Source of the DNA: an uncultured bacterium
GTDB lineage: Bacteria > Fidelibacterota > UBA2242
DNA: 64,000 bases
Reading direction: 5' to 3'
NCBI GenBank assembly: GCA_964588795.1
Contig: CAZPQN010000003.1
Coordinates: 18,639-82,638, forward strand
Shown one piece after another: positions 9,194 through 61,501 of the stretch. The notes below the pieces were generated by a model. It was not told the DNA's origin, did no database searches, and worked only from the letters and a program-made list of their open reading frames with translations. The first letter of the stretch is position 1, and every line of letters begins with the position of its first letter. The position numbers were made by a program, and so were the translations under genes.

Positions 9194-9202
9194 CCTAGCT
9201 TT

Positions 9203-20207: not shown

Positions 20208-20218
20208 CGTGCTTTTCC

Positions 20219-20962
20219 CTATTTGTAAAACCGCATTGGATTAAAATATTTATCATCAAGCGGCACGTCGTATTCAGCATCGTGCATTATGACGACGGTT
20301 TTGCTCTGCTTAATCAGGTTCAGCATCGTCATGCGCGTGGGCATCTGGCGCCCGGAAATCATTTTGTACTCTTCGATCAAGAGATCCTTTTTATGACCAT
20401 CAGCAGCGGTATAATATTCAATTTTAGGCGTCTGATAGTTTTCTTTTAAAATGGTGATGACCACTTTGGAATAGGATGATTCCTTTTTCGGAGTTCCCTC
20501 CAGCGTCCAGCTTTTGGCGTCCGATTTGAGAATTTTAAAGGAATAACTCTCTTCCATATTGCCGCCACCGAGATCTTCATAAGTGAAATCCCCACCGACG
20601 CCCTGTACTGTCTGATCCTTCGATTTGGCGGCGATTTTACGCACCCGCCCTGTGGACGGAAAGTAGACCCACTGATCGCCGGAAAGAGACAGAATCCGCA
20701 ATCCTTGAATGGACTTTGGGGTAATGAACTCCATGTAGCTGTTATCTTCGCCTTTACCGTAAGCCAAGACCTTCATTTCCCGAAAATTACTATTATCACC
20801 GACATAAGGATAGGTCAACATGCTCATTTTGGCGCTACTACTGCTGGTCTTGCCCATTTCATCCACTTTGCGAATGATAGTCAGCGCCTCATCCTCGGCT
20901 GAGGCTGAAATCGCCACAAGCACAATCATCAATCCCCTTAAAAATCGTCCCGTATATTGCAT
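20219..20962 (-). CDS. LolA-like periplasmic protein (outer-membrane lipoprotein-sorting-like, non-canonical LolA fold family)
   Basis: Signal peptide; about 220-aa mature domain; paralogous to ORF 52187..52930 (shared ...GGDFTYEDL... / ...GSDLSYEDM... block); immediately downstream of MMPL exporter. Confidence 0.55.
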   Translation of the reverse strand: MQYTGRFLRGLMIVLVAISASAEDEALTIIRKVDEMGKTSSSSAKMSMLTYPYVGDNSNFREMKVLAYGKGEDNSYMEFITPKSIQGLRILSLSGDQWVYFPSTGRVRKIAAKSKDQTVQGVGGDFTYEDLGGGNMEESYSFKILKSDAKSWTLEGTPKKESSYSKVVITILKENYQTPKIEYYTAADGHKKDLLIEEYKMISGRQMPTRMTMLNLIKQSKTVVIMHDAEYDVPLDDKYFNPMRFYK

Positions 20963-20976
20963 GGTTTCCTCCTTGG

Positions 20977-23697
20977 TTATTTTTGCTTCTGGTCAAAAGT
21001 CAACAGGGCGGGTAAAATGAATATGGCGGTCAACAGGCAGGTCGTTATACCCACGAAGAGAATCCGCCCCATGGAATTTACTGATCCAAATCGTCCGATC
21101 AACCCCAACGAACCAAATCCGATCATCGTCGTCAAGGCTGACAGTAAAACGCCTTTACCGGTGTAGCGATAGACGGTTTTGATGTCTTGTTCAACCCGGA
21201 AACGGTGCGCGATATGAATACCGAAGTCGATACCCATGCCGATGACGAGAGGTATCATGGCGATGTTAATGAAATTTAGTCGCTGCCCCAATAATGGATA
21301 CAAACCACCCATCCAGAGCATGCCGATAATTAGCGGCGCCGACGCGAAAACCACATATTTCAGGTTCCGGAAATTCAGAATCAGGAAAAAGAGCACTGCC
21401 GCAAAAATATATATGCCTGCCCTCCCGGAAGCATTAATAACCTCGTCTAACCAGGCTGTCAGGATTTGGGTTACCCCGGTGATTCTCGGCGATACCCGCG
21501 CAAGGGAATTGTTAAAATGGCGAATTATGTCAATTTTATCCAGAATACCTCCTTCCGGATAGATCATGATCAGATTCCGGGTTCCCGTTTGATCGAACAT
21601 GCCATTCCGGACGGATTCCGGCAGGTCGTCAATGGTCATCGGGCGGCGGGCCTGACACATCCGGGTAACGATCGCATCCATTTCCTTAGCAAAATAATAA
21701 TCCAGCTGGGTCAGACGCCGGGCGTATAGTTGCGGATCGCTGGCGATAAGCCCAATCAAATTTTTAAAAATTTCCCGCCCCGACTGACCCACCTCCGCTC
21801 CAAAAATCTCGCGAATCATGGCATTGCGCCTTTTGACGATCTTATTGTTCTCGCCCAATCCGGCGACTGAGAGATCGCTCATCTCAATAATATTCCATTC
21901 CAGGCGCTGAATTTCCTGCACAAATCTTTCAATATCGGCACTAGAATAGTGTATCTGACGGTAGCGGGTGGGCATTTTACGCAGCTTGGCGATGGCCGCC
22001 AGCCGAGCCTGCTGTTCCTCTTCCGGGGGAAAGAAGTAGGACACCGAACTGATCTCGGCGATCATCGGAGTTTTTTCCAGTTTTTCGGTAATCGTGCGAG
22101 CTTCCTCAATGCTATTGGTTATCACCATCGAGGCAAAGGGGGTCATCTCGAATTTTTCCATGACTTTCTGATATTGGATCATCGCGGGCATATCCTGCGG
22201 CTCGAGCTTCATGATATCATATTCAAGTCGGTTCAGGAATATCGCCCCAGACAGTCCGACGGTGATCAGCCCGCTCAATATCAGGGATAGCTTTCGATGT
22301 CTGTAAAGCGTCTGGCTGATGTCGGCTAAAAACTGATAATTGATGTTGGGCAGGTGGGTTTTGCTGACATCCTTTTTTCCCCACCAGAGTAAGAGGGATG
22401 GTAATATGAAAAACATCGCTAAAAAACAATTAATGATGCCGGTCCCCATAATCAGCCCGAATTGCTCAAAAGCCTGGACGCCGGCAGCGGACATGACAAA
22501 AAAAGCGATCGCCGTCGTTATTGCGGCTAAAAATGTACCCATCCCGGCTTTTTGATAGGTAAGACGCAGGGCTTCGGGCGGTTCATAACCGTCCTCACGG
22601 TAAGTGGTAAAATTGGTTATGATCTGAATCCCGTAATCCACTCCTAACCCGATGAGCAGGATGCCCATAATGCTGGTCATCATGTTGATCTCTTTAATTG
22701 TCACGCCAACGAATCCGTAATTAAATACAACCCCCATAATCAGGACCAGCAAAACGAAAATTATTGAACGCAACTGGCTGAAGGAAAAAATAAACAGCAA
22801 TAAAATCAGAACAATAGCCACTATTGACGGAACCGCCATATCGAAGCTGAGTGCGTCCTGTTCATCGCTCTGAGTTGGTAAATCGCCGGTATACCCGACA
22901 TGTAAATCAGGATACTTGGCATTCATAGCACTCTGTACTACTTTTATCTCATGCATGAACTCGATCACTTTTTCTACTTCGATCGCGTTAATTGCGGGGG
23001 TGATAGTGAATAAAAGCATGCTGTTATCATGGTTAAACCGGTACGGATCGCCGTAGAGAAATGTCTCCGCTAGGACCTGGCCCTGCTCTGCAACCGGCAA
23101 CGTGTCCGGATTGGATAGAAAAACCCGCAAACTGGTAAAGAAGTTCTCTATTTGCGAAAGCATGGCAACCGCATCGTTTTCCTGCTTGTTGGTCTCCAGC
23201 TCCTCTTCGGCTTCGTCGCCTGTGTAAGTCTCCTCAAAAGAATTATTCAGCGCGGTGACGAATGGTAAAAGATTCAGTTGCGACAAGGTTTGGCTGGTCT
23301 TTTCAATGTCCTTGGCCTTGGACAGCATCAAACCCCAATCATCAATGAACTGGCGATCGGTTTTCAGGTTGATGGCTTTGATACTCTGCACCAGCTTCTC
23401 ATTGGCGCGGACCATGGCAACGAAATCCTCGGCACACTGGCCCATGCGTATTTTATCCTGACCCTCGATGGTGATCATGGCGGTAGCTCCACCGGAAAAA
23501 ACCGAATCAACTTCGAGATAGCTGGCAATTTTGGGATCTTCTGCTGATAGGAGGTCCTTGATCTCGGTTTTCGTTTCAATATTTTGCGCCGCGATCAGAC
23601 TAAGCACAAAAAGCACTACCGCCACAAACGGTATCCATTTGTAAAAACGAACTACGAAATTAGCGACGATTTGCATGATTTTTCCCTCTGATTTCAT
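20977..23697 (-). CDS. MMPL/RND-superfamily exporter (predicted 12-TM, two large periplasmic loops)
   Basis: 906 aa, two repeated 6-TM bundles each preceded by a large hydrophilic loop; characteristic of COG1033 exporters. Confidence 0.8.
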   Translation of the reverse strand: MKSEGKIMQIVANFVVRFYKWIPFVAVVLFVLSLIAAQNIETKTEIKDLLSAEDPKIASYLEVDSVFSGGATAMITIEGQDKIRMGQCAEDFVAMVRANEKLVQSIKAINLKTDRQFIDDWGLMLSKAKDIEKTSQTLSQLNLLPFVTALNNSFEETYTGDEAEEELETNKQENDAVAMLSQIENFFTSLRVFLSNPDTLPVAEQGQVLAETFLYGDPYRFNHDNSMLLFTITPAINAIEVEKVIEFMHEIKVVQSAMNAKYPDLHVGYTGDLPTQSDEQDALSFDMAVPSIVAIVLILLLFIFSFSQLRSIIFVLLVLIMGVVFNYGFVGVTIKEINMMTSIMGILLIGLGVDYGIQIITNFTTYREDGYEPPEALRLTYQKAGMGTFLAAITTAIAFFVMSAAGVQAFEQFGLIMGTGIINCFLAMFFILPSLLLWWGKKDVSKTHLPNINYQFLADISQTLYRHRKLSLILSGLITVGLSGAIFLNRLEYDIMKLEPQDMPAMIQYQKVMEKFEMTPFASMVITNSIEEARTITEKLEKTPMIAEISSVSYFFPPEEEQQARLAAIAKLRKMPTRYRQIHYSSADIERFVQEIQRLEWNIIEMSDLSVAGLGENNKIVKRRNAMIREIFGAEVGQSGREIFKNLIGLIASDPQLYARRLTQLDYYFAKEMDAIVTRMCQARRPMTIDDLPESVRNGMFDQTGTRNLIMIYPEGGILDKIDIIRHFNNSLARVSPRITGVTQILTAWLDEVINASGRAGIYIFAAVLFFLILNFRNLKYVVFASAPLIIGMLWMGGLYPLLGQRLNFINIAMIPLVIGMGIDFGIHIAHRFRVEQDIKTVYRYTGKGVLLSALTTMIGFGSLGLIGRFGSVNSMGRILFVGITTCLLTAIFILPALLTFDQKQK

Positions 23698-23721
23698 AAT
23701 GCCCCCATCAGTAAGTCTATT

Positions 23722-24405
23722 TCATTTTCTGGGATCTTTAAAACGTGATGCAGACATGCTTTTCATAATTTCATTAAGATTAAGCATTTCGATTTGATCC
23801 CGGGTCAGCGCTGAATAAAGCTTGCCAAAAGAATTGGCGAAAATGGTTGAAATGGTCTTCAAATCGGTATGATAGTACTCGCACCATTCATCACTAAATA
23901 TTACAAAGGAAAACAAGGGCGCAAAAAAGCAAAAGAAACCACTTAACAGCTGGGCCTGATTCTTTTCCAGTCTAATGCCTAATCGAGCCGAAATAGCATA
24001 ACCGGCATCGAAATTCTGATCGAAATAGCGGAAAATATTCAGGTGGGGGGTCAATTCTACATCTTTGATGGACTCGGCAAATGCAATTTTAATCGCGTTT
24101 TTATTGGCCATCAAAAAAGGTAGCGTGTTGTTCAAAATGATCGTGTCGATACCAAGCGTCGGTTCTGCAAGCCAGGCTTCGGTGATGGATTGTTTGATGA
24201 CCACCGACTTTTTCACGAAGTCATCCATGAGCGAGGCCAGGATTTCTTCCTTGCTCTTGAAATAATAGTAGATGAGTGACTTGGTTATTCCCGCCGTTTT
24301 GGCGATCTGATCAATACCGGTGGCGTCGAAACCGCGCTGAGCAAAAAGGGCTTCAGCCGTCTGCAGGATCTTCCGGCGGATGTTTTTTCTTGGTTGCTTG
24401 ACCAT
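23722..24405 (-). CDS. TetR/AcrR family transcriptional regulator
   Basis: N-terminal HTH AEALFAQRGFDATGIDQIAKTAGITKSLIYYYFKSKEEIL. Confidence 0.85.
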   Translation of the reverse strand: MVKQPRKNIRRKILQTAEALFAQRGFDATGIDQIAKTAGITKSLIYYYFKSKEEILASLMDDFVKKSVVIKQSITEAWLAEPTLGIDTIILNNTLPFLMANKNAIKIAFAESIKDVELTPHLNIFRYFDQNFDAGYAISARLGIRLEKNQAQLLSGFFCFFAPLFSFVIFSDEWCEYYHTDLKTISTIFANSFGKLYSALTRDQIEMLNLNEIMKSMSASRFKDPRK

Positions 24406-24420
24406 AGCGGTACTCTTTCC

Positions 24421-24452
24421 GTAAATTTGACTGACCGTTCAGTCAAATTTAC
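24421..24452. promoter_or_regulatory. perfect palindromic operator GTAAATTTGACTGA-ccgt-TCAGTCAAATTTAC (14+4+14), plus a third half-site-like copy at about 24469-24480
   Basis: Directly read; located 16-47 nt upstream of the tetR start codon (24405) on the leading edge of the TetR-MMPL-LolA-like-OMP operon. Confidence 0.6.
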
Positions 24453-24565
24453 GAAGAACGCCCTTGTCTGTCAAGTCAATTTTTCACCCTTTAATTATTC
24501 CCCGCGCCTTTTCTTAAGCGAAAGTAGGCCACCAACAATTAGCGTGATGGATGAAATGCCAGGAT

Positions 24566-25987
24566 TCAGCTTCGGAAAAACGCGGCACCTTTCCGGACTG
24601 CCTGCTGATTGAGCTCGATCAGGTTTTTACGCTTTAATACATCCCCTAAGGTGTCGAGTACAATTTCCATGTGCATGATTTTTTGGTGTTCGATCAGAGC
24701 ACCGGCGATGATCATATTCGCGGCTTTGGAATTGCCGAGTTCATCCGCCATCTGGGTAGCAGGAATCGCCAGAACCGTCACATCAGTTCGTACCGGTTGA
24801 CGGTCAATGATGGAATCGTCATAAATGATCAGACCTCCGGGTACGACATCATTTTCGAATTTGTCCAGCGAGGGACGATTCATGGCAATCAGCACGGTGG
24901 GATTGGCGATCAGCGGAGTACCAATCTTGCGGGTGGCGATTTTGACGCTGCAATTGGCCGTACCTCCGCGCATTTCCGGCCCGTAAGAAGGGAGCCAGCT
25001 GACATGATAGTCATGACGCATCGCCATCTCGGCTAACACTTTGCCCAAACTCAGCACACCCTGTCCTCCGAACCCGGCGATCTTGATTTCCTCGGTGAGG
25101 TCGTCTTTGCGGATCGTGGCGATTTTATGCTGGTCGATTTTGGAACCTTCAATATTGAGAATTTTCGGCAGCTCTTCAAACTGGACTACGGTTCGTTTGA
25201 AATCTCTACCGGGAAATTGTTCTGAGATGTCCTTTTTAACTCCTAAGGGAAATTGTTTCTGGAACACTTCGCGCACCCATTCGCGGGCTTTAACTGACGA
25301 CAATTTGAGGTTCGAAGGACAGGATGACAGAGCTTCGATGAAACAAAAGGCGTTTTTTTCCGCCTGGAGTTTCAAGGCTTTCCGAACCGCTGTGCGGGCT
25401 TGCATGATGCTTTTTGTATCGCCCAGCATCACACGCTCGACGTACACCGGGGCTTCCAATTGAGCAATGAGTTCCGCCATCCGAATTGGATAACCCTCAT
25501 TGTCGCTCGTGCGTCCGCGGGGGCTGGTGAGAGTTTTCTGGCCGATCAGCGTCGTGGGAGCCATCTGTCCGCCCGTCATACCGTAAACGGCATTGTTCAC
25601 GAAGAAGACTGTGATCCCTTCTCCGCGATTGGCGGCGTGGATAATCTCGGCGGTGCCGATCGCGGCTAAATCACCGTCACCCTGGTAGGAAATAACGATT
25701 GATTCGGGATGCGCGCGTTTGATGCCCGTTGCGACTGCCGGAGCCCGCCCATGAGCTACCTGGACATTGCCGGTATGAAAATAATAATAAGCAAAGACAC
25801 TGCAACCGACTGGACTGATAAAAATCGTCCGATCGCGCAGACCGAAATCGTCCAGCGCTTCAGCAATCAACTTATGCAGATTGCCATGACCGCATCCCGG
25901 ACAGTAGGTCGTCGTCAATTTATCACTGCCGGGTTTACGCTCATAGACTTCATAGAAAGAACTGGATTTCTGCAGGACCGTGTTCAT
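24566..25987 (-). CDS. 2-oxoacid:ferredoxin oxidoreductase, fused beta (TPP-binding) and gamma subunits
   Basis: N-terminal [10 protein letters not shown] and GDG TPP motifs (beta); C-terminal [20 protein letters not shown]...GPEMRGG (gamma). Confidence 0.8.
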
Positions 25988-27048
25988 ACCGACCTCATGA
26001 GTTTGATGACTTCATCGTGAATTTCGCGAATCGACGGTACATTGCCGCCCACCCGACCGTAAAAGTAAACTGGCTTGCGGCCATCTACCGCGAGGCGCAC
26101 ATCGTCGACCATCTGACCGTTACTCATTTCGGAGACCAGGAAGAAACGTGCCTGTTTAGTCAATTCGCGCATGATCGCTTTGGGAAACGGGAAAAGCGTT
26201 ATCGGGCGCACCAGACCGACCGGAATGCCTTCCTGGCGTAGATTATCAACCACCGTTTGCAGGATGCGGGAAATGATTCCGAATCCCACCAGGATAATTT
26301 CCGCATCCCTGGTCTGATAGGTCTCGTAGCGGACTTCTTCCTCTTCCATAATCCGGTACTTCTGCTGGAGTTTGTTGATATGTTTTTCCAAATCATCGGG
26401 ATCAAGGTCAATCGAGGTTAGCAAATTATCGGCGGTTTCGGGCGTACCTTTTACTGCCCAGCTTTTTTCCGGGAACTTCGTGACCGGTTCCGGAAATTCC
26501 ACCGGTTCCATCATCTGACCGATAAAGCCATCGGTTAAAATGTAAACCGGATTACGGTATTTGTCCGCTAATTCAAATGCCAATTTGCCCAAATCGCACA
26601 TTTCCTGCACCGAATTGGGGGCGAGGACAATGACTTTGTAATTTCCATGGCCCCCGCCTTTGACTACCTGATTGTAATCACTTTGCTCCGGAGCGATGTT
26701 GCCCAGTCCCGGTCCACCGCGCATGACGTCAACGATGACGCAGGGCAATTCGGCCCCGGCACAATACGAAACTCCCTCCTGCTTCAGGCTGATTCCCGGA
26801 CTGGAGGAAGCGGTCATGACGCGCTCGCCAGCCGCCGCGGCGCCGTAGACCATGTTAATGGCGGCAATTTCGCTCTCTGCCTGGATGAAAGTCCCCCCGG
26901 CCACCGGTAAATAGAGGGCGGCGGCATGCGCGATTTCACTCGCGGGAGTTATTGGATAGCCATAGTAGGCCCGGCAACCCGCCAGTATGGCTCCCTTGAC
27001 TACTGCTTCATTTCCATATAACAATTGTTTTGCCATAGCAGACCTCAT
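25984..27048 (-). CDS. 2-oxoacid:ferredoxin oxidoreductase alpha subunit
   Basis: N-terminal [31 protein letters not shown] typical of KorA/VorA/PorA; 4-nt overlap with beta-gamma gene. Confidence 0.8.
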
Positions 27049-27416
27049 TACTTATCAGAAATATTTACGGTTTCGGGTATCGTCGTAAGGCAGTTGGTAC
27101 AGCGGACCTTGTTCGGGGTGCTCGCCTCACTAAAAACCTTATATTCGCCCCGGCAATGTGGACAATACCGGGTCTCCGTCATTAAATCCCACCTTTTAAA
27201 AACCGTAATTGCTCCCGGTTCGGGACAATTGTAGAAGCACACGCCACATCCGGTACAGCCTTCGCCTTTGTAGGTGGATGGATGATAGCTGTGCGTATTA
27301 AAGCGTTCGGTCAGGTACAGCACCTTGACCGGACAGGACTCGATGCAGAGTTCACAGCCTTTGCATTCTTCGGCATTGATAACGACATGTCCTCTGGTTT
27401 TCACATCACTCATATT
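27048..27416 (-). CDS. 2-oxoacid:ferredoxin oxidoreductase delta subunit (2x[4Fe-4S] ferredoxin)
   Basis: [12 protein letters not shown] and [12 protein letters not shown] motifs; likely start at internal Met MSDVKTRG (track ORF to 27506 overlaps the upstream aminotransferase by 70 nt). Confidence 0.75.
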
Positions 27417-27435
27417 GTGCTCCGTCACTAACTTA

Positions 27436-28635
27436 TCATTTGAATTGTTTAAACACTTTAGCAAAACCCGGTAAGGCGCCGATAATTTCCCGTTCCGGAA
27501 CCGCAAATGAAATCCGGAAGTAGCCGGGACGGTGAAAAGCCACGCCGGGAGTCGCCAGGATCAGGTTTTCCTGCAAGGCATTGATAAAAACCACATCATC
27601 GGGAATCGGACTTTTCGGAAAAATGTAAAAAGCGCCCTCGGGTTTGATCACCTCATAACCAATCTCGACCAACCCGTTATAAATCAGGTCCCGCCGACGC
27701 TGGTAAAGTGCCACATCCACGCGTTCATTTAAAACGTGGCTGATGACACGTTGCATCAGCGCGGGAGCATTGATGAAACCCAGCACCCGGTTGCAGAAGG
27801 CGGCGGCGGCGATGATTGTCGCGTTGTCTTCGATTAACGGGCTGACAGCCAGGTAACCGATCCGTTCTCCCGCCAATGATAAATCCTTGGAAAAAGAGGT
27901 CGCCATGATCGTATGCCGGTAAAACCGGAATGCGGTGTCACAGCGCTTACCGTCAAAGACAATTTTTTTATAGGGCTCGTCAGTTAAGAGATAGATGGGC
28001 GACTGGCGCGTTTGATTGCTACGAGTCAGCAGCTTGCCGATTTCCGTCAGCAGGTGGGCGCTGTAGATTCGCCCGGTGGGATTATTGGGGGAATTGATGA
28101 CCAGGATTTTTGTTCGGGTGGTGATTTTGGCGGCCAGGTCATCCAGATCGGGCAGTAAATCAGCGGTGGTCTGCACCATTACCTTGCGCCCCTGATGGTT
28201 ATCGATATAAAAATCGTACTCTGTAAAATAAGGGGCGATCACCATGACCTCGTCTCCGGGATCGAGCAAAGTCTTGAAAATGACATTGATTGCTCCCGCC
28301 GTACCACAGGTCATCAGCACCTGCTCCGCAGTAAAAGGCAAACCGCTTTCTTTCTCTAACACCTCAGCGATAGCCGTACAGGTTTCGGTATATCCCTTAT
28401 TTGGCATGTAGCCATGCCTGTGCGCTCCGGTTTTTTGGGCTTCAGCGACCAACGCCTGATCAAATGCCGCCGGACTGGGTACATCTGGATTGCCTAATGA
28501 GAAGTCAAAGACCCGGTCGGCACCGTATCGCTTTTTCAGAACAATGCCGGCATCGAACATTTTGCGGATCCAGGAACTGTGTCGCATGGATTCGGTGATT
28601 TTAGTGGCGATTGGCATTCCTGTTCCTCCTCTCAC
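27436..28635 (-). CDS. class I/II PLP-dependent aminotransferase (aspartate/aromatic aminotransferase-like)
   Basis: [18 protein letters not shown]-lysine motif; 399 aa. Confidence 0.8.
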
Positions 28636-28640
28636 GGTGT

Positions 28641-30083
28641 TTAAATGTCAAAGGACCACTGACCGGTTTGTAAATATTCGTCAATGGCTTGGGCGGCAGA
28701 GCGGCCCGCGCCCATAGCCAGAATTACCGTCGCCCCACCGGTAACAATGTCTCCGCCCGCAAATACTCCCGGTTTGGAAGTGCGTCCACTTTCCGGTTCG
28801 GCGAGGATATTGCCCCACTTATTGCACCGCAAATCCGGAGTGGTCTGCGAAATCAACGGATTGGAACCATTTCCAATCGCCATGATCACCAAATCGGTCT
28901 CTATTTCAAATTCTGAACCAGCTATAGGTACAGGGCGGCGTCGGCCGGAAGCGTCCGGCTCTCCGAGCTCCATTCGCAGACAGCGGGCTTTGTGCACCCA
29001 GCCGGTGCCGTCAGCAACAAATTCAATCGGGTTGGTGAGCGTCCGAAAAATGATGCCTTCTTCACGGGCATGGTGCACTTCCTCGATCCGGGCTGGCATT
29101 TCAACTTCCGATCGACGGTAAACGATGGTTGCGGTTTCGGCCCCTAAACGCTTGGCGGTGCGGACAGCGTCCATGGCAGTATTGCCACCGCCAACGACCA
29201 CGACGTTTTTTCCGTGCCTGACGGGCGTATCGGTAGACGGAAACTCATAAGCGCGCATCAGATTGACGCGAGTCAGATACTCATTGGCCGAGTAAACCCC
29301 CATCAGGTTTTCCCCGGGAATATTCATAAACCAGGGCAAACCCGCCCCAACTCCCAAAAATACCGCCTGATAGCCACCTGTGGTAAGCAATTCGTCAATC
29401 GTCATGGTCTTGCCTACGATAAAATTGGCGACGAATTCCACCCCCATCTGCCGCAGGTTATTGATTTCGAAGCGCAGGATCTTCTTCGGCAGGCGAAATT
29501 CCGGAATGCCATAAACCAGCACTCCCCCGAACTCATGTAAAGCCTCAAAAACCGTGACCGCATGTCCTCGTTGCACCAAATCGCTGGCACAAGCCAAACC
29601 CGCCGGACCGCTACCCACGACAGCAACCTTTTTTCCCGTCAGTTTGGCATTCTTGGGAAATGCAGTAGCTGAATTTTGCTGGCGTTCATAGTCTGCGACA
29701 AAGCGCTCTAATCGACCGATGGCCACCGGTTCGAACTTACCTTTCAGGATACAGGTTTTCTCACACTGTTCCTCCTGTGGGCATACGCGCCCGCAGACAG
29801 CTGGCAGCAGGTTATCCTCCTTGATTTTACGGGCGGCACCTAAGAAATCACGCACGGCAATCAGCTGGATAAATGCGGGTATTTTAATGCGCACGGGACA
29901 GCCATCAATACAAGTCGATTTGGGACAATTCAGGCACCGCTGCGCTTCCCGGACGGCGGTCTCAACGTCAAATCCAAGATTCACTTCCTCGAAATTGCGA
30001 TTGCGGATCTGCGGCGGCTGTTCCGGCATTTTTTGACGGGGGATTGCGAGACGCTCTTTTTTACTCAAAATCTGGTTCGCCAC
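28641..30083 (-). CDS. nfnB: NfnB/SudA-type glutamate-synthase-small-subunit-like oxidoreductase (2x[4Fe-4S], FAD, NAD(P)H)
   Basis: Cys clusters CLNCPKSTCIDGCP / CGRVCPQEEQCEKTC, dinucleotide fold VAVVGSGPAGLACA and VVVVGGGNTAMD. Confidence 0.7.
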   Translation of the reverse strand: MANQILSKKERLAIPRQKMPEQPPQIRNRNFEEVNLGFDVETAVREAQRCLNCPKSTCIDGCPVRIKIPAFIQLIAVRDFLGAARKIKEDNLLPAVCGRVCPQEEQCEKTCILKGKFEPVAIGRLERFVADYERQQNSATAFPKNAKLTGKKVAVVGSGPAGLACASDLVQRGHAVTVFEALHEFGGVLVYGIPEFRLPKKILRFEINNLRQMGVEFVANFIVGKTMTIDELLTTGGYQAVFLGVGAGLPWFMNIPGENLMGVYSANEYLTRVNLMRAYEFPSTDTPVRHGKNVVVVGGGNTAMDAVRTAKRLGAETATIVYRRSEVEMPARIEEVHHAREEGIIFRTLTNPIEFVADGTGWVHKARCLRMELGEPDASGRRRPVPIAGSEFEIETDLVIMAIGNGSNPLISQTTPDLRCNKWGNILAEPESGRTSKPGVFAGGDIVTGGATVILAMGAGRSAAQAIDEYLQTGQWSFDI

Positions 30084-30091
30084 GATTGCCT

Positions 30092-30970
30092 CTATTCTTC
30101 TGCCTGCGGATTAAGCTGTTCACTCAGGCGACAATGATGTACTGGTGGAGGAGTCTGCTCAAACTCCTGCAAGGCCTGGGCTTCAAATTCCACAAACTGA
30201 CGCTGGCGCCGACCAATTTCCGCAAAGTCGACCTGATGACCGTCGAACTCCGGTCCATCAACACAAACGAACACCGTTTTATCGGCTACCGTCGCGCGGC
30301 AGCCCCCGCACATACCCGTTCCATCCACCATAATGCTGTTAAGCGAAACCATAGTCTTAATCCCGAAGGGACGGGTCTGCTCCGCTACCGCCGCCATCAT
30401 CGGCAAGGGACCGACAGCCAGAATAAAATCCGGCCTGTGTCGTTGGAGCAAATCCTGCAACACTTGTGTGACAAAACCTTTGATCCCGTAACTGCCGTCG
30501 TCGGTTGAGATGAGCACCTCGTCACAGACAGCCCGCATCTCGGATTCACAAATAATCAGTTCTCTCTGCCGGGCACCGACAATGGCGATGACCTGATTCC
30601 CGGCCTGTTTCAGTGCTTTAGCGATGGGTAAAGCTTCCGCGGTGCCCACCCCCCCGCTCACGCAGACTGTCAACCCAAATTTATCAATATGCGTCGGTCG
30701 TCCCAGTGGGCCGACTAAATCGTGTATGTAATCGCCGGCTGATAATAAATTTAAATGCCGCGTAGTTTTCCCGATCCCCTGGACAATCAGTGTTATGGTA
30801 CCCTGCGCGGGATCGCCATCCACAATCGTCAGGGGAATGCGTTCCCCTTTTTCCCAGACACGCAGAATGACAAATTGCCCGGGCTGGCGTTTGCGGGCAA
30901 TCAGCGGCGCCTCAACGATAAATTTTTTAATCTGCGGTGCGATAAATTCAGCCGTGATAATTTGATGCAA
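30092..30970 (-). CDS. nfnA: NfnA/SudB-type FAD- and [2Fe-2S]-containing electron-transfer subunit (PyrK-like)
   Basis: Ferredoxin-NADP-reductase-like fold with C-terminal CGGCRATVADKTVFVCVDGPEF cluster; adjacent to GltD-like partner. Confidence 0.65.
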   Translation of the reverse strand: MHQIITAEFIAPQIKKFIVEAPLIARKRQPGQFVILRVWEKGERIPLTIVDGDPAQGTITLIVQGIGKTTRHLNLLSAGDYIHDLVGPLGRPTHIDKFGLTVCVSGGVGTAEALPIAKALKQAGNQVIAIVGARQRELIICESEMRAVCDEVLISTDDGSYGIKGFVTQVLQDLLQRHRPDFILAVGPLPMMAAVAEQTRPFGIKTMVSLNSIMVDGTGMCGGCRATVADKTVFVCVDGPEFDGHQVDFAEIGRRQRQFVEFEAQALQEFEQTPPPVHHCRLSEQLNPQAEE

Positions 30971-30989
30971 CCTCTGCGACCTTTCTTTT

Positions 30990-31346
30990 TTACACGAGAA
31001 CCTGGTAGGCTTTTTCCAGGGACTCCAGTTCTTTCAGCACGAAGGGCAACATCTTAAGGACCGTGGATAAGCCAACGATGGGTATTGTCAATATGAGCGT
31101 GTCAATGATTTCATCGCGCGTCGCACCCGCCCGCAGTGCTTTGGGAATGATGATTTTTATGGCGTCCGGAGAAGGGCTATTGACCTGAATAGCTAACATG
31201 ATCAGTTCCCGGGTCTTTTCGTCGAGATGATTGCCAAGGACATTGACCATTTTCTGATAGCTTTTAAAAACTTCCTTGCGGTTTTCCATAAGGAAGGTCA
31301 ATCCATCTTTATCGAGGTCCTCCCAACGGAAATTGTCGGTTACCAT
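30990..31346 (-). CDS. carboxymuconolactone decarboxylase / AhpD-like family protein
   Basis: 118 aa; ...TRELIMLAIQVNSPSPDAIKIIIPKALRAGATRDEIIDTLIL... matches AhpD-like CMD domain layout. Confidence 0.55.
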   Translation of the reverse strand: MVTDNFRWEDLDKDGLTFLMENRKEVFKSYQKMVNVLGNHLDEKTRELIMLAIQVNSPSPDAIKIIIPKALRAGATRDEIIDTLILTIPIVGLSTVLKMLPFVLKELESLEKAYQVLV

Positions 31347-31360
31347 ATAATCCCTCCTTT

Positions 31361-32389
31361 TTATTTGACCTCTTCTATCCAGCCAAACCGGTCTTCTATG
31401 TCACCCAGCTGGTAAGCGGTCAGATACTTGTACAGTTTTACCGTCAGCGGGCCCGGTTCCAAACCATCGGCATAAAACTTATATTGCCGGTTTTGATACC
31501 CCAAACAACCAACGGGGGTGATGACCGCCGCGGTGCCGCAGGCTCCAACTTCGACAAAATCTTCGATCTCATCAACACTAACCCGCCGCTCGATAAAAGT
31601 CAGTCCCAGGGCTTCCTGGGCGACCGTGATCAGCGATTTGCGCGTTATACTGACCAAAATAGAGTCCGACCGCGGTGTCGCCAGAGTCCCATCCTTGAAT
31701 ACAAAATAAATATTAGCTGCGCCCATCTCCTCGAAATATTTATGCTCGATCGAGTCCAAGTATACGACTTCCTGATAACCCTCCTCTTTGGCAATCTTGA
31801 GCGGTACCAGCGAGGCGGAATAATTGCCGCCGGCCTTGGCGCGCCCGATCCCGTGGAGAGCGGCACGATCGTAGTAGTCGTCGACTTTCAACTTGATGGT
31901 CTTAAATCCAGTCTTGAAATAGGGGCCTACCGGACAGACAAAAACGACAAACATGTATTCATAGGCCGCGCGGACACCCAAATTTTCGCCCACTCCCAGT
32001 TCAAAGGGGCGCAGGTAAAGCGCCGCCCCGGAACCATAGGGTGGTACGTAATCAATATTGGCCTTAATTGCCTCCAGAATACCCTTCATAAAGAGCTCTT
32101 CCGGCACTTCCGCCATCAGGATGCGGCTGGCAGATTCACGGAATCGCCGCGCATTATCGCGGGGACGAAAAAGCAGAATCCGACCATCCTTTGCCCGTTG
32201 CGCTTTCATCCCCTCAAAAATCTGCTGACCATAATGCAGACAGGTGGCCCCTTCATCAATACTCAGTTTGTTTTCGGTGACCAGGCGTCCATTATCCCAT
32301 TGCCCATCTTTCCAGTGCGCAATAAAGCGGTAGGGAGTATAACTGTAGCGAAAATCGAGTTTGCTCCACTCAATAGTTTTGGGGTCCAT
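31361..32389 (-). CDS. ilvE: branched-chain amino acid aminotransferase (class IV)
   Basis: EVVYLDSIEHKYFEEMGAANIYFVFKDGTLATP and C-terminal ...GACGTAAVITPV... blocks typical of BCAT. Confidence 0.85.
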   Translation of the reverse strand: MDPKTIEWSKLDFRYSYTPYRFIAHWKDGQWDNGRLVTENKLSIDEGATCLHYGQQIFEGMKAQRAKDGRILLFRPRDNARRFRESASRILMAEVPEELFMKGILEAIKANIDYVPPYGSGAALYLRPFELGVGENLGVRAAYEYMFVVFVCPVGPYFKTGFKTIKLKVDDYYDRAALHGIGRAKAGGNYSASLVPLKIAKEEGYQEVVYLDSIEHKYFEEMGAANIYFVFKDGTLATPRSDSILVSITRKSLITVAQEALGLTFIERRVSVDEIEDFVEVGACGTAAVITPVGCLGYQNRQYKFYADGLEPGPLTVKLYKYLTAYQLGDIEDRFGWIEEVK

Positions 32390-32774
32390 GACCTGCCTCT
32401 CTCTTTAAAATAGTTGTTGGATTGGATTTCTGCATACTCTGTTTCAAGCACCATGTAGCGTATTTGAGTCAAACAAAAGTAATGCCACACAGCCCTGACC
32501 GCCGCGAAAGCCGGACAGTTTATAAAAAGATCGCAAGTACCGACACTTTGGGAAAAAAGATTTGGATCAAGCTTTTTTTCCTAATTCTGAAAATCCAGCG
32601 GAAATCTTTTTATTGGAAATAGGAAATTGCACGCCCCTAGGGAAAGTTTTTACCTTTATTATCATCGAATAAGGATCATGACCCGGATTTTTGGTAAAGA
32701 GTTTGCATGGTAGCGGGAGAGTACCTGGTAGGTTTTTTACAATGCTTAACCACTTTAATCAACGGAGGTGAGAA

Positions 32775-33851
32775 ATGTCCAAAAAGTTATTCATACCCGG
32801 GCCGGTCGATGTTCGCCCCGCGGTTTTACAGGCCATGAGCACACCGATGATCGGCCACCGCAGTAAAGATGCCTCCGCGCTTCAGCGACGCATCTCCGAC
32901 AAACTCCGCAAAGTTTTTTTCACCGCAAATCCCATCTTGTTATCTACTTCTTCCGGCACGGGATTGATGGAAGGTTCCATCCGTTCCTGCACCGCCAAAC
33001 GCGCGGTCGTTTTCTCGGTCGGTGCCTTCGGCGATCGATGGGCGGGACTGGCGAAATCCAACAACGTTCCGCATGACTTGGTCCGCGCTGAAAATGGTCA
33101 ACCCACTCTGCCGGATATAGTTGATCAGTACCTTTCTTCCGGAAAATACGACGTCTTTACTATTACCCATAACGAGACTTCGACGGGCATTATGAATCCG
33201 GTCGCGGCGATCGCGGAAATTCGTCAGAAATATCCCGACATCCTCTGGTTGGTGGATACGGTTTCATCTATGGGTGGAACACGCATCGAGGTGGACGAAC
33301 TCGGCATTGACGTTTGTATCACTTCGACCCAGAAATGCCTTGGCCTGCCACCCGGGTTGTCCATCGCTTCTGTCAGTCAACGCGCACTCGAACATGCCCG
33401 TACCGTCTCCTTCCGCGGTTCCTATTTAGACATCGTCGAGCTCTATGACTACCTGGTTAAAAAGGATTACCAATATCCCTCCACTCCATCGCTGGCCCAC
33501 ATGTTCGCGCTCGATCAGCAGCTCGATTACATTCTCGAGGTCGAGGGACTTGAAAATCGGTTTGCGCGTCACCTTGAAATGGCACTGCTGACTCGTCAGT
33601 GGGCTAAGGAAAACTTCGCTCTTTTCGCCGCTCCCGGTTATGAATCCGTCACCCTCACGACCATAAAAAACACCAAAGGTATTTCGATCGCCGATCTCAA
33701 CAAGAAAATCGGCGAGCAGGGCTATCAGATTTCCAACGGCTACGGTGACCTGAAAGAAAAAACCTTCCGCATCGCGCATATGGCCGACCGGACGATCGAG
33801 GAAATGCAGGCGCTATTTAAAGTGCTCAATGAGACCATCGCTAAAATGTAA
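32775..33851 (+). CDS. class V aminotransferase (serine-pyruvate / archaeal-type phosphoserine aminotransferase-like)
   Basis: N-terminal LFIPGPVDVRPAVLQAM, SGAT-family layout, 358 aa; adjacent serA. Confidence 0.7.
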   Translation: MSKKLFIPGPVDVRPAVLQAMSTPMIGHRSKDASALQRRISDKLRKVFFTANPILLSTSSGTGLMEGSIRSCTAKRAVVFSVGAFGDRWAGLAKSNNVPHDLVRAENGQPTLPDIVDQYLSSGKYDVFTITHNETSTGIMNPVAAIAEIRQKYPDILWLVDTVSSMGGTRIEVDELGIDVCITSTQKCLGLPPGLSIASVSQRALEHARTVSFRGSYLDIVELYDYLVKKDYQYPSTPSLAHMFALDQQLDYILEVEGLENRFARHLEMALLTRQWAKENFALFAAPGYESVTLTTIKNTKGISIADLNKKIGEQGYQISNGYGDLKEKTFRIAHMADRTIEEMQALFKVLNETIAKM

Positions 33852-33866
33852 CCGCGAGAGGAACCT

Positions 33867-34763
33867 ATGAAAATCCTGATTACTGACGGACTGAGCAAAG
33901 AAGGCCAGGCAATCCTGCGCCAAGCTGGAATCGAGTTTGACATCCAATTTTATGAACCTGCCGAATTACTGAAGGTCATTCCCGAATATGACGGTATTTT
34001 AGTCCGTTCCGCCACTAACGTCCCGCGGGAAGTCATTGACGCCGGTAAAAAACTCAAGGTCATTGCGCGCGGCGGAGCCGGTATTGACAACATCGATCAT
34101 AAATACGCCAAATCCATCGGAATTCCGGTTTTGAACACGCCGGCGGCTAATTCGCACTCCGTCGCCGAGCTGGTTTTCGCCCACCTGTTCGCCTTGGCGC
34201 GGTTCATACCCCAGGCCAATATTACCATGCGCGAGGGCAAGTGGGAGAAAAAAGCCTATGCCAAAGGCCTCGAGCTCGCCGGGAAGATCCTGGGCATTGT
34301 CGGTTTTGGCAAAATCGGTCAGATCGTCGCCAGGCTTGCCCATGGACTGGGAATGCAGGTAATCGTCTATGACATTGCCGAAACTAAAACTGATTTACCT
34401 ATCCGGATGGTCAGTTTCCCGGACCTGCTGAAAAATTCCGACTTCATCACCCTGCACGTTCCCAAGCAGGCCCAGCCGCTGATTGGAGTCAGCGAAATCG
34501 AAATGATGAAACCCGGCGTTTTCATCATCAACTGCGCCCGCGGCAATGTCGTCGACGAAAAAGCTTTACTGAAAGGATTAAAATCCGGAAAGATCGGCGG
34601 CGCGGGATTGGACGTATATGCCGAGGAACCTACCCAAAACCTCGAACTGGTACGTCATCCCCGGGTTTCGGTCACGCCCCATACCGGAGCCAGCACGATT
34701 GAAGCGCAGGAGCGCGTCGGGGTAGAAATCGCGACCAAAATAGTCACAACTTTGACCGCGTGA
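33867..34763 (+). CDS. serA: D-3-phosphoglycerate dehydrogenase (short form, no ACT domain)
   Basis: 2-hydroxyacid dehydrogenase family; NAD-binding GIVGFGKIGQIVARLA; catalytic ...CARG...H... Confidence 0.8.
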   Translation: MKILITDGLSKEGQAILRQAGIEFDIQFYEPAELLKVIPEYDGILVRSATNVPREVIDAGKKLKVIARGGAGIDNIDHKYAKSIGIPVLNTPAANSHSVAELVFAHLFALARFIPQANITMREGKWEKKAYAKGLELAGKILGIVGFGKIGQIVARLAHGLGMQVIVYDIAETKTDLPIRMVSFPDLLKNSDFITLHVPKQAQPLIGVSEIEMMKPGVFIINCARGNVVDEKALLKGLKSGKIGGAGLDVYAEEPTQNLELVRHPRVSVTPHTGASTIEAQERVGVEIATKIVTTLTA

Positions 34764-34828
34764 TAAACGGCGCGGCTGACTCATCTCTGTAGAAATAATT
34801 TACATGGCAAGTTTACGTAGGGTTACGC

Positions 34829-36079
34829 ATGGTAAAAATAAAAGCCTTTAAAGGGCTCCGGCCCCGGCCAGAGTTGGCGGTCAGGATCGCCTCACTGCCG
34901 TATGATGTAATTGACTCCGACGAAGCTCGACAGGCAGCGGTGGGGAATCCTTATTCCTATCTGCACGTGGTAAAATCCGAAATCGATCTGGCTCCCGAAG
35001 TCGATCATTACGCTGAAAAAGTCTACCTAAAAGCCGCTGAAAATCTGCAACAGATGTGGGCCCGGGGCTGGTTACTCCAAGACGGTCAACCGTCATTCTA
35101 CATCTACCGCCAGCGGATGGATCAGCACGTCCAGACCGGTCTGGTAGTGACTGCCCACATTCAAGATTATCTGGATCAGAAAATCCGCATCCATGAATTA
35201 ACGCGTGCCAAAAAAGAGCAGGACCGTATCAACCACGTCCGTTATACTCAGGCCAACACGGAGCCAGTGTTTCTAACCTATCCCGCCCGCAAAGAAATTG
35301 ATACGATCATCAACGACTTTTGTACAAGCCAGCCGCCGGTCTACCATTTCCTTGCTGATGATAAAATTCAGCATACCGTCTGGATCATCGATAATCAGGC
35401 GTTAATTCTTGAACTAATCGCATTATTTGAACAGATTCCCTATGCTTACGTTGCGGATGGACATCATCGCACGAAATCGGCGGTCATGGTCGGCGAACAA
35501 CTGCGGCAGGAAAATGTCAAACATACCGGTTCCGAGGAGTACAACTGGTTTTTAGCCGTGTATTTCCCGCATGACCAGCTCCAAATCCTGCCCTATAATC
35601 GGGTAGTCAAAGACCTGCATGGTTTAACTTCAGCGGAGTTCCTGCATAAGGTCGCGGAGAAATTCAAAATCCAACCCGCCGCTGACCGCAAACAGGCTGA
35701 ACCACAACGGAAACATCAATTCGGTCTGTATCTGGACCACAAATGGTATGCAATGGAAGCCCGAACCGGGACTTTCAACACCGACAATCCGGAAGCCGCA
35801 CTGGACGTGGCTATTCTGCAAGCCAATCTGCTCGCCCCGGTTTTGAACATTGGCGATCCGCGTACCGATGAAAGAATTGACTTTGTGGGGGGAATACGCG
35901 GTCTGGCCGAACTGGAACGGCGGGTCAATTCCGGTGAAATGGCAATCGCTTTTGCCCTTTATCCTACGCAAATTGACCAGTTATTCGCGATTGCCGACGC
36001 GGGTAAGATCATGCCGCCCAAATCCACCTGGTTCGAACCTAAACTCCGGAGTGGATTGATCATTCATCTGCTGAAATAA
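34829..36079 (+). CDS. DUF1015 family protein
   Basis: N-terminal IKAFKGLRPRPELAVRIASLPYDVIDSDEAR matches the DUF1015 signature; 416 aa; serA/serC neighbourhood. Confidence 0.55.
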   Translation: MVKIKAFKGLRPRPELAVRIASLPYDVIDSDEARQAAVGNPYSYLHVVKSEIDLAPEVDHYAEKVYLKAAENLQQMWARGWLLQDGQPSFYIYRQRMDQHVQTGLVVTAHIQDYLDQKIRIHELTRAKKEQDRINHVRYTQANTEPVFLTYPARKEIDTIINDFCTSQPPVYHFLADDKIQHTVWIIDNQALILELIALFEQIPYAYVADGHHRTKSAVMVGEQLRQENVKHTGSEEYNWFLAVYFPHDQLQILPYNRVVKDLHGLTSAEFLHKVAEKFKIQPAADRKQAEPQRKHQFGLYLDHKWYAMEARTGTFNTDNPEAALDVAILQANLLAPVLNIGDPRTDERIDFVGGIRGLAELERRVNSGEMAIAFALYPTQIDQLFAIADAGKIMPPKSTWFEPKLRSGLIIHLLK

Positions 36080-37820: not shown

Positions 37821-38690
37821 TTGCATAAAATATTCCTGCGAATTTTTCAAGTAGTCGTAATTCTGCTGATCCTGGGCTTGGCAAGCAGTACGTTTCTGCC
37901 GCCAAGTTCCCACTGCCCGGATTGCCCGCCGGCGCTTCGTTTGCTACTGCCTGATCGTTTTTATGATTCTCCTCTGCATGCCAGCCTGTGGCTTGTGCTT
38001 GCGGTAAGCATGATCATAGCGGTGATTTTCCGGGGCCTCCGCACTGCTTCCCAGAAGATTCTGCACCTTTTGTTGGCGCTGATTTTTTTAACGATTTTCT
38101 TCGAAAAAAGCACGAACCGCCGGTTTTTTATGACCATCAAAGAGGGACAGGCTGTGAACTTATCCGATGTTATCCATTCCAGCACGCCAGAATATAATTT
38201 GCAGTTGCGGCTCCTGCGTTTTGAGCTCGAACGCCACCCCGACGGCCTGCGTCCCAAAGCCTTCAACAGTCATCTGCTAATCGAAGGACACAAGCCCGCA
38301 ACCGTTTCGATCAACCGCCCACTGGCAATCGGACGTTACCGGCTCTATCAAAATGCCTATCATGAAGTTCCGACCTTCAAATTCCTGGTTGCAGAAGATA
38401 CCCTGATTGCCGCAGTAGGTGATACTGTCAAGTGGAATGAACACCGGATTTGGTTCGATAATTACGACCTCCATGAGCCGAGTCTGCGGGTGTATTGGGA
38501 TGGCATTCCCAACCATGTTTCACTCAGTGGGGAATTTACGGCAGACCGAATGCGCATCCGCGTAACGCCGGGGCCATTTATTTATGCCAGTATCATTGAG
38601 GTTGTCGAAGTCGCCGGGACTGCTTTTCTACTCTTTGTCAGCTTGTTGTATCTGGTTGCACTGGTCAATGTATTCTGGTGGAATCGCTGA
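37821..38690 (+). CDS. short ResB/CcsB-like cytochrome c biogenesis membrane protein
   Basis: N-terminal TM, hydrophilic middle, C-terminal TM; directly upstream of ccsA; only 289 aa (canonical ResB is larger). Confidence 0.4.
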   Translation: MHKIFLRIFQVVVILLILGLASSTFLPPSSHCPDCPPALRLLLPDRFYDSPLHASLWLVLAVSMIIAVIFRGLRTASQKILHLLLALIFLTIFFEKSTNRRFFMTIKEGQAVNLSDVIHSSTPEYNLQLRLLRFELERHPDGLRPKAFNSHLLIEGHKPATVSINRPLAIGRYRLYQNAYHEVPTFKFLVAEDTLIAAVGDTVKWNEHRIWFDNYDLHEPSLRVYWDGIPNHVSLSGEFTADRMRIRVTPGPFIYASIIEVVEVAGTAFLLFVSLLYLVALVNVFWWNR

Positions 38691-38705
38691 AGTAAGGTTA
38701 TTGTT

Positions 38706-49733: not shown

Positions 49734-49746
49734 ACAGGAGAGTAGC

Positions 49747-58920: not shown

Positions 58921-58921
58921 C

Positions 58922-61490: not shown

Positions 61491-61501
61491 TACAGTTACT
61501 T

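Follow-up and report, generated by a model that had tools for sequence, protein, structure and literature searches.

Does a tightly packed gene set for branched-chain amino acids (BCAAs) in an uncultured bacterium degrade these compounds, or does it make them? The question is raised by eight genes at positions 24566-32389 of a 64,000-nucleotide stretch of DNA (the whole of it hereafter called the window) from a member of the Marinimicrobia (Fidelibacterota; UBA2242; contig CAZPQN010000003.1 of assembly GCA_964588795.1, positions 18,639 to 82,638). The genes encode two transaminases, an AhpD-like protein of the CMD fold, the two subunits of a bifurcating transhydrogenase (NfnAB) and the three subunits of a 2-oxoacid:ferredoxin oxidoreductase (OFOR). 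A preliminary description of this DNA had read them as the complete logic of an oxidative amino-acid fermentation. Here we report that they form a conserved operon which, controlled as we predict by a promoter of the sigma-54 type and an activator site upstream of it, would interconvert BCAAs and branched acyl-CoAs; we lean, if only slightly, towards the catabolic direction. New are the recurrent linkage of NfnAB and OFOR, a conserved sigma-54-type motif with an associated repeat, a CMD protein of the operon core that lacks the redox residues of AhpD, and a zinc-ribbon tail on the OFOR delta subunit.

Operon layout and gene identities

All eight open reading frames (ORFs) are present on the minus strand, and the identities first proposed for them agree with the Pfam and NCBIfam profile scores, by which each gene was assigned against the curated cutoffs. 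The operon begins with ilvE (31361-32389), which encodes a type II branched-chain aminotransferase (BCAT) of 342 aa (NF009897, 433.7 bits, cutoff 307; TIGR01123, 391.2 bits, cutoff 250; PF01063). It is followed by the gene of a cysteine-free, 118-aa CMD-fold protein (30990-31346; PF02627, 39.7 bits) and by nfnA (30092-30970, TTG start), the product of which is the FAD/NAD-binding small subunit of 292 aa with an Asp/3Cys [2Fe-2S] motif (NF004862, 391.7 bits, cutoff 220). Next come nfnB (28641-30083, GTG start) for the bifurcating FAD/NADPH subunit of 480 aa with two [4Fe-4S] clusters (TIGR01316, 597 bits, cutoff 472) and a gene for a class I, aspartate aminotransferase (AspAT)-like pyridoxal phosphate enzyme (ORF 27436-28635; NF005305, 531 bits, cutoff 376), whose nearest entries in the PDB are 3ELE (268 bits) and the Thermus AspAT (170 bits). 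The last three genes encode the OFOR: the delta subunit (27048-27413), a ferredoxin with two [4Fe-4S] clusters (Fer4 families) and a C-terminal tail resembling a zinc ribbon (TIGR02098); the alpha subunit (25984-27048) with POR_N and PFOR_II domains; and a beta-gamma fusion of 473 aa (24566-25987; PF02775 at residues 69-218, PF01558 at residues 307-468).

The successive spacers measure 14, 19, 8, 5 or 23, and 22 nt, followed by a 1-nt overlap or an 11-nt gap and by a 4-nt overlap of the beta-gamma start with the alpha stop; the alternatives depend on the start codon chosen. Alignment of orthologues favours ATG 28617 for the aminotransferase, a conserved start deduced from the orthologue in the related locus L002, as well as ATG 27413 for delta and ATG 27036 as the likely start of alpha. 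Consensus scans of positions 23000-33500 for sigma-70 promoters and intrinsic terminators gave counts no higher than those in shuffled sequences, so that such signals do not delimit the unit. Judged from a gene order that is conserved in related Marinimicrobia, the eight genes are one transcription unit, as had been supposed.

The oxidoreductase and its link to branched-chain amino acids

The OFOR has the cofactor motifs of its family. Its beta domain carries the thiamine pyrophosphate motif GDG...NN (G103-D104-G105...N131-N132) and the four cysteines of the proximal [4Fe-4S] cluster (C29, C32, C62, C223), all of them invariant in 17 homologues, and every delta subunit has two CxxCxxCxxxCP [4Fe-4S] motifs. 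The alpha translation contains the substrate-carboxylate motif YPITP, the role of which has been described (PMC5020499). Among the subfamily models, alpha exceeds the cutoff of VorB only (NF005507, 545 bits against 399). It stays below the cutoffs of the KorA and OorA models (243 of 579 and 320 of 411 bits, respectively) and reaches 107 bits on PorA, 83 bits on the indolepyruvate oxidoreductase model and 78 bits on the alpha subunit of the archaeal 2-oxoisovalerate oxidoreductase (VOR; NF006232).

The neighbours of this enzyme were surveyed in 88 loci from many phyla that contain a delta-alpha-betagamma block (loci are cited by label where they must be told apart). In 15 of 80 loci, the gene immediately after beta-gamma encodes a type I IlvE (NF005146, 361 bits, cutoff 279), which is not orthologous to the type II enzyme of the window; a glutamate dehydrogenase (GDH) of the GdhA type occurs in 11 loci. 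Directly upstream of delta, 24 of 68 loci have a gene of the acetyl-CoA hydrolase/transferase family, whose product scores 307-332 bits on the butyryl-CoA:acetate model and 131-135 bits on succinate CoA-transferase models. In loci such as L030 and L040, the order CoA-transferase-delta-alpha-betagamma-IlvE-GDH encodes a full route between BCAAs and branched-chain acids.

These neighbours bear on the alternative that the OFOR is a 2-oxoglutarate synthase (KOR) and the operon a glutamate-centred unit for nitrogen distribution, in which succinyl-CoA and CO2 would yield 2-oxoglutarate and then glutamate, and the two transaminases would relay the amino group to BCAAs and aspartate. The best matches of alpha among solved structures are indeed of the KOR type (1YD7, 226 bits; 8YS5, a 2-oxoglutarate synthase, 185 bits; 6N2N, 143 bits), and both GDH and an acetyl-CoA hydrolase/transferase-family gene, a family to which succinyl-CoA transferases also belong, adjoin the OFOR in other phyla. 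The structural matches carry little weight, however, because the PDB contains no VorB-type structure and KOR-type entries would head the list by default. The profile scores place alpha with VorB and not with KorA or OorA, the butyryl-CoA:acetate model gives the adjoining CoA-transferase 2.3-2.5 times the score of the succinate transferase models, and the recurrent neighbours are BCATs of two non-orthologous types; BCAT, GDH and CoA-transferase neighbours in other phyla therefore argue against 2-oxoglutarate as the substrate, and we consider this alternative quite unlikely. We infer from profiles and neighbours that the enzyme is of the VorB type and linked to BCAAs, and with this its substrate range. 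Prediction of specificity from the active-site residues of StOFOR and DaPFOR was abandoned, since these determinants were judged not to be transferable between lineages.

Conservation and history of the operon

The closest homologues of beta-gamma, NfnB and the CMD protein all belong to Candidatus Marinimicrobia/Fidelibacterota. An identical order of all eight genes is present in at least three other lineages of this phylum (L081-L083, L084/L085, L089), whose beta-gamma subunits are 76-81% identical to that of the window. Common to the eight-gene loci is a divergent trio of genes, which in the window occupies 32775-36079 on the plus strand and encodes a class V (AGXT/SerC-like) aminotransferase, a 298-aa D-2-hydroxyacid dehydrogenase and a DUF1015 protein. 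Since the eight genes, their order and their divergent neighbours recur across lineages, the arrangement is more than chance. The trio is found beside the ilvE operon in each of the related Marinimicrobia loci, with the stretch of L086 covering the aminotransferase only, and is probably a phosphoserine-pathway cluster.

Four further operons (L002, L086, L087, L088), with beta-gamma identities of 67-74% to the window, consist of six genes in the order ilvE-CMD-aminotransferase-delta-alpha-betagamma and have no nfnAB. In still other Marinimicrobia, nfnAB genes that are 70-73% identical form a separate nfnA-nfnB-rubrerythrin-like unit; such units, from Marinimicrobia whose OFOR operon lacks nfnAB, lie at 6093-8870 in L090 and at 6132-8919 in L091, and in both of them a rubrerythrin/ferritin-like gene (about 155 aa) comes after nfnA-nfnB. 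That order echoes the 'trifunctional ... ferritin domain' fusion model PRK12775 of NCBIfam, and the ferritin-like gene was not carried along with nfnAB into the operon of the window. The G + C content across nfnAB (0.51-0.53) is like that of the rest of the window.

As far as these comparisons tell, the ancestral core of the operon is the set of six genes to which that of the CMD protein belongs. The nfnAB genes, which four related operons lack, are to be regarded as an accessory block that joined later in one sub-lineage. The AhpD-like gene had been described as the inserted element; the roles are to be exchanged, since its product is 71-87% identical across the clade, on a par with the catalytic alpha subunit.

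The six-gene core and the separate rubrerythrin-like unit could also be taken to mean that the eight genes have no common function, and that nfnAB lies among them by accident and serves the general supply of NADPH. The genes are separated, however, by gaps of 5-23 nt or overlap, with no internal promoter or terminator signal above chance, the nfnAB insertion has been kept down to 76% identity of beta-gamma, and nfnAB adjoins the same OFOR independently in the Acidobacteriota. Mere neighbourhood by chance therefore seems very improbable to us.

NfnAB and its association with the oxidoreductase

The two nfn genes were compared with solved structures. The model TIGR01316, which the large subunit matches, carries the name 'NADPH-dependent glutamate synthase', and homologues of the large subunit are named likewise. 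On this naming, the genes could encode GltD/PyrK-like partners of a glutamate synthase or a dihydroorotate dehydrogenase. The large subunit scores 552 bits with NfnB of T. maritima (4YLF_B), 501 bits with NfnL of P. furiosus (5JCA_L) and 280 bits with GltD; the small subunit scores 321 bits with NfnS, the small subunit of P. furiosus NfnI (5JCA_S), the two NfnS/NfnA matches amounting to 321 and 257 bits, and 73 bits with PyrK. The Nfn scores are thus about twice that of GltD and about four times that of PyrK.

The ligands of the iron-sulfur clusters tell the same story. The small subunit has the [2Fe-2S] motif D-x4-C-x2-C...C ('VDGTGMCGGC...C'), a pattern identical to that of P. furiosus NfnS, and Glu126 in the sequence 'GRLERF' of the large subunit aligns with E126 of NfnL, the ligand of the proximal [4Fe-4S] cluster in Nfn (PMC9503767). 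The annotated genes of the window and those called in L081-L089 include neither gltB nor pyrD. By relationship and by cluster ligands, including both non-cysteine residues, these are genuine nfnAB genes, as had been proposed, with a predicted activity as bifurcating transhydrogenase; we see hardly any room for the GltD/PyrK assignment.

In the Acidobacteriota, one locus (L064) has the order nfnA-nfnB-delta-alpha-betagamma and another (L044) the order nfnA-nfnB-CoA-transferase-delta-alpha-betagamma, in both cases on the same strand, while nfnAB lies within a few kb of the OFOR genes in L073 and L075. To judge by these gene orders, NfnAB is linked to this OFOR independently in Marinimicrobia and Acidobacteriota, and two independent recruitments suggest a real redox partnership. 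A review of nfn gene contexts names no aminotransferase or 2-oxoacid oxidoreductase as neighbours (PMC6405883).

The CMD protein and the delta tail

Cysteine is missing altogether from the CMD protein and its 18 orthologues, and no cysteine or histidine is conserved among the 19 proteins. The AhpD motif CPGC..H of 5DIK aligns with SPSP..K. This lack of cysteine and the replacement of CxxC...H by SPSP...K exclude redox chemistry of the AhpD type, so the function implied by the label 'AhpD-like' has to be given up. An AlphaFold2 model of the protein (pLDDT 78) retrieved only CMD-fold proteins among its top 31 Foldseek matches, which gave no hint at function. A profile search of 1.84 billion representative sequences yielded a single cluster, restricted to Marinimicrobia (222 bits); the next match scored 90 bits. 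Our guess is that it partners the OFOR or one of the transaminases, in either a structural or a regulatory capacity.

Eight of its closest distant relatives were retrieved and are likewise poor in cysteine in the motif region. One of them (P0283, 213 aa) has a C-terminal domain with CPH...CPxH motifs, which by eye looks Rieske-like, and P0289, P0291 and P0297 are of similar length. Electron-transfer proteins may thus be the partners of this CMD subgroup.

The tail of the delta subunit comprises 35 aa with the pattern CxxC...CxxC, and residues 115-143 match the MJ0042-type zinc finger model TIGR02098. It is present in all 11 delta subunits from Marinimicrobia and in none of 24 from other phyla.

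The putative promoter region

The 385 nt that precede ilvE are poorly conserved overall: when eight orthologous intergenic regions were aligned, the column identity was 45%. Two blocks stand out. The first contains a motif like a sigma-54-type -24/-12 promoter, TGGCAT-TACT-TTTG(T), on the minus strand (32474-32487); 84 nt separate its 3' end from the ATG of ilvE. The pattern TGGCAY-N4-TTTG[T/A] has no other match on either strand of the 64-kb window, and each of the nine related Marinimicrobia loci has it 84-116 nt ahead of ilvE. It also precedes the first gene of the OFOR operon in one more Marinimicrobia locus (L012, 7098-7111), where this gene encodes a CoA-transferase, and in two loci from Calditrichota (L004, L019), where it encodes delta. 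The form TGGCAT-N5-TTG[T/A] is kept in position and strand in 14 operons. When both strands of the 88 loci were searched, 12 of the 37 matches fell into the 480-nt windows upstream of the operons, where about 0.6 would be expected from a background of 0.013 per kb. Apart from its last base, which is T or A where C is expected, the motif agrees with the sigma-54 consensus of Clostridiales, TTGGCATNNNNNTTGCT (PMC6615313).

The second block, about 90-140 nt upstream of the -24 element, is an inverted repeat (32577-32626, minus strand), TTTCCTAATTC / GAAATAGGAAA, with arms of 11 nt that are 28 nt apart and 91% complementary. Both arms are among the few conserved blocks of the ilvE upstream alignment, and an equivalent repeat, AATTCCTAA/TTAGGAATT, is present in L089. 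Its distance from the promoter is that expected of an upstream activator site, and we regard the repeat as a candidate site for an enhancer-binding protein. From the motif and its conservation we predict that the operon promoter is sigma-54-dependent. The sigma-54 regulons of anaerobic Clostridiales include genes for amino-acid catabolism and fermentation (PMC6615313), which mildly supports an inducible catabolic role of the operon. No leader or riboswitch was detected in an Rfam scan of 24300-32900.

Direction of the pathway

The proposed route would start with IlvE, which would transfer the amino group of valine, leucine or isoleucine to 2-oxoglutarate. The AspAT-like transaminase might relay the group to oxaloacetate or another acceptor, or it might broaden the range of amino acids. 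The delta/alpha/beta-gamma OFOR of the VorABC type would then convert the branched 2-oxoacid and CoA to acyl-CoA, CO2 and reduced ferredoxin, and NfnAB would tie the reduced ferredoxin and NADH to the NADP(H) pool. In this peptide-scavenging anaerobe, the net direction is most likely oxidative, with the acyl-CoA left to enzymes whose genes would lie elsewhere.

Catabolism is the direction that we favour, with moderate confidence at best. The second transaminase and the type of promoter speak for it, as do the genes for an Opp/Dpp peptide transporter, an aminopeptidase C and a tricorn-like protein in the window. In published work, the Marinimicrobia of anoxic zones are heterotrophs that ferment and possess peptidases, Rnf and hydrogenases (PMC8359207).

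Several points weigh on the other side. The OFOR, the transaminases and Nfn are all reversible; because of the reversibility of OFORs in particular, 'fermentation' is favoured and nothing firmer. An enzyme that would release the acid from acyl-CoA or conserve ATP (Ptb/Buk, an ADP-forming acyl-CoA synthetase or a CoA-transferase) was not found in the operon or the 64-kb window, and neither was a GDH. The conserved divergent neighbours resemble genes of serine biosynthesis. In the promoter motif, the -12 element reads TTG[T/A], and the final C of the canonical form TGGCAY-N5-TTGC, in which GG at -24 and GC at -12 are ten bases apart, is never present; T or A in its place may be a local form of the sigma-54 -12 element in Marinimicrobia and Calditrichota. 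The window contains no gene for an enhancer-binding protein; a Sigma54_activat protein is encoded on a related Marinimicrobia contig (L091). The consensus scans gave no above-chance terminator at the end of the unit. To our knowledge, no bacterial member of this OFOR family has been assayed for its substrate. Finally, VorABC of Methanobacterium thermoautotrophicum, the enzyme that gave the family its name, is reportedly counted by the title of a 1997 study by Tersteegen et al. among the 'four anabolic 2-oxoacid oxidoreductases' of this organism. The pathway is thus not complete in the operon, contrary to what had been stated at first; its logic remains plausible, and its oxidative operation is favoured by the evidence named above and opposed by the reversibility of the enzymes, the anabolic VorABC and the serine-like neighbours.

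The same genes could work in the opposite direction, a possibility that we take seriously while holding it to be the less probable one. The operon would then make valine, leucine and isoleucine from isobutyrate, isovalerate and 2-methylbutyrate in the environment: the OFOR would reductively carboxylate the branched acyl-CoA with reduced ferredoxin, IlvE would aminate the resulting 2-oxoacid, and NfnAB would provide low-potential electrons by bifurcation from 2 NADPH to reduced ferredoxin and NADH. Such a synthesis needs exactly reduced ferredoxin and NADPH, the two currencies of Nfn, and the absence of an ATP-yielding step in cis or in the window agrees with it, as do the reportedly anabolic namesake and the constant divergent pairing with serC/serA-like genes and DUF1015. 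Activation of the acids could be the task of a But-like CoA-transferase such as adjoins the OFOR in other phyla. Bacteroides and rumen anaerobes are known to carboxylate short acids reductively (work cited in PMC11304471). However, the synthesis of BCAAs would not need a second, AspAT-like transaminase, and promoters that depend on sigma-54 and an enhancer-binding protein are typical of inducible catabolic or nitrogen-regulated operons. The genes for peptide uptake and peptidases in the window, the view of the phylum as fermentative in the literature and the lack of nfnAB in four related operons also speak against it. A literature search on BCAA auxotrophy or the use of VOR in Marinimicrobia gave nothing specific.

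For the catabolic operation that we prefer as well as for its reverse, a bolder proposal can be made, which we put forward as a speculation with a small chance of being correct. NfnAB and the VorABC-type OFOR might be one coupled unit, possibly a physical complex with the CMD protein and the delta tail as adaptors, that is driven by NAD(P)(H) through flavin-based bifurcation without a free ferredoxin pool, is controlled by a sigma-54 activator and has evolved at least twice, in Marinimicrobia and in Acidobacteriota. If this were true, the unit would amount to an oxidoreductase or synthase of branched-chain 2-oxoacids that is linked to pyridine nucleotides.

Surroundings of the operon in the window

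An Opp/Dpp-type peptide ABC transporter (a solute-binding protein, two permeases and two ATPases; 57955-63247), the aminopeptidase C (4997-6382), a GH20 hexosaminidase (2930-4969) and a NamZ exo-muramidase (10926-12167) are encoded in the window; their presence suggests that the organism may live by scavenging peptides and peptidoglycan. Three genes in a row on the minus strand (6422-10669) encode an SsnA-like aminohydrolase (454 bits, above the cutoff), an amidohydrolase of the allantoinase/hydantoinase type and a 488-aa PALP enzyme; they resemble putative purine or hydantoin catabolic clusters of the ssnA/ygeW type. ResB-like and CcsA genes at 37821-39470 belong to system II of cytochrome c biogenesis. 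They indicate that the organism makes c-type cytochromes, which argues against the label of a strict fermenter; the earlier view of the operon as the mark of an amino-acid fermenter is overstated.

Between the OFOR operon and a PD40/tricorn-like gene lies a four-gene cassette (18729-24405) for a TetR protein, an MMPL/RND-like transporter, a LolA-like protein and a 492-aa protein without family match. Its G + C content is 0.46-0.47, compared with about 0.51; the cassette is absent from L081, L084 and L088, and tetR and MMPL have matches in none of 91 loci. It looks like a lineage-specific insertion that is separate from the operon. Just upstream of tetR (23722-24405) is a perfect palindrome, AAATTTGACTGA-ACGG-TCAGTCAAATTT (24427-24446, in an operator at 24423-24450), which overlaps a promoter-like site, TTGACA-17-TAAATT (24446-24474), and has the appearance of a classic autoregulated TetR operator. 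This TetR was considered as regulator of the operon and rejected, as its operator palindrome has no copy upstream of ilvE. Elsewhere, genes for a LolD-like ABC ATPase and two FtsX-type permeases are followed by a LolA-like gene (49032-52930), which together with that at 20219-20962 makes two LolA-like paralogues in 64 kb.

Comparison with known systems

The operon provides a concrete gene set for the handling of BCAAs in an abundant uncultured phylum. Among the known systems close to its oxidoreductase is VorABC of Methanothermobacter, the basis of NF005507. The alpha subunit of the window matches this VorB profile end to end (545 bits), and the enzymes are alike in having, next to a small ferredoxin subunit, an alpha subunit of some 350 aa and a larger subunit of some 475 aa; the large subunit of VorABC is presumably also a beta-gamma fusion. 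Unlike VorABC, the enzyme of the window is bacterial and has a zinc-ribbon tail on delta, and its genes share an operon with those for NfnAB, a CMD protein and two transaminases.

The logic of the pathway, from transaminase to 2-oxoacid:ferredoxin oxidoreductase to acyl-CoA, is shared with the four-subunit VOR of Thermococcales, which is said to have been described by Heider, Mai and Adams in 1996 and to be used in peptide fermentation. That enzyme belongs to another OFOR lineage, as the low score of the window alpha on NF006232 (78 bits) reflects, and consists of separate gamma, delta, alpha and beta subunits. In Thermococcales the pathway is completed by an ADP-forming acyl-CoA synthetase, none of which was seen in the window.

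Ile and Val degradation by the bkd operon of Bacillus subtilis is dependent on BkdR and SigL and proceeds through an NAD/lipoamide 2-oxoacid dehydrogenase complex, Ptb and Buk. In bkd, a sigma-54-type promoter and an upstream activator site precede a gene set for the oxidation of branched-chain 2-oxoacids, as we predict for the operon of the window; unlike bkd, this operon encodes a ferredoxin-dependent enzyme and neither Ptb nor Buk. The apparent control by this promoter type across lineages related to Marinimicrobia, including Calditrichota, offers a handle on the regulation of the operon and, through the inducer, on its direction.

In the CMD protein the fold common to the AhpD/CMD family is retained (PF02627, Foldseek) and the catalytic CxxC and His of AhpD are missing, and this redox-dead protein, very strongly conserved, is a fixed member of the operon. 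Both Nfn subunits of the window match NfnAB/NfnSL (4YLF, 5JCA) over their full length and have the conserved Asp and Glu126 ligands. The genomic setting differs, since the nfn genes are here part of an OFOR operon, in which the genes of the CMD protein and of a transaminase flank them, and the presence of NfnAB beside the same OFOR family in two unrelated phyla suggests a specific partnership of bifurcating transhydrogenase and OFOR. The current understanding of these systems is not overturned; the enzymes are those of textbook families in a new arrangement.

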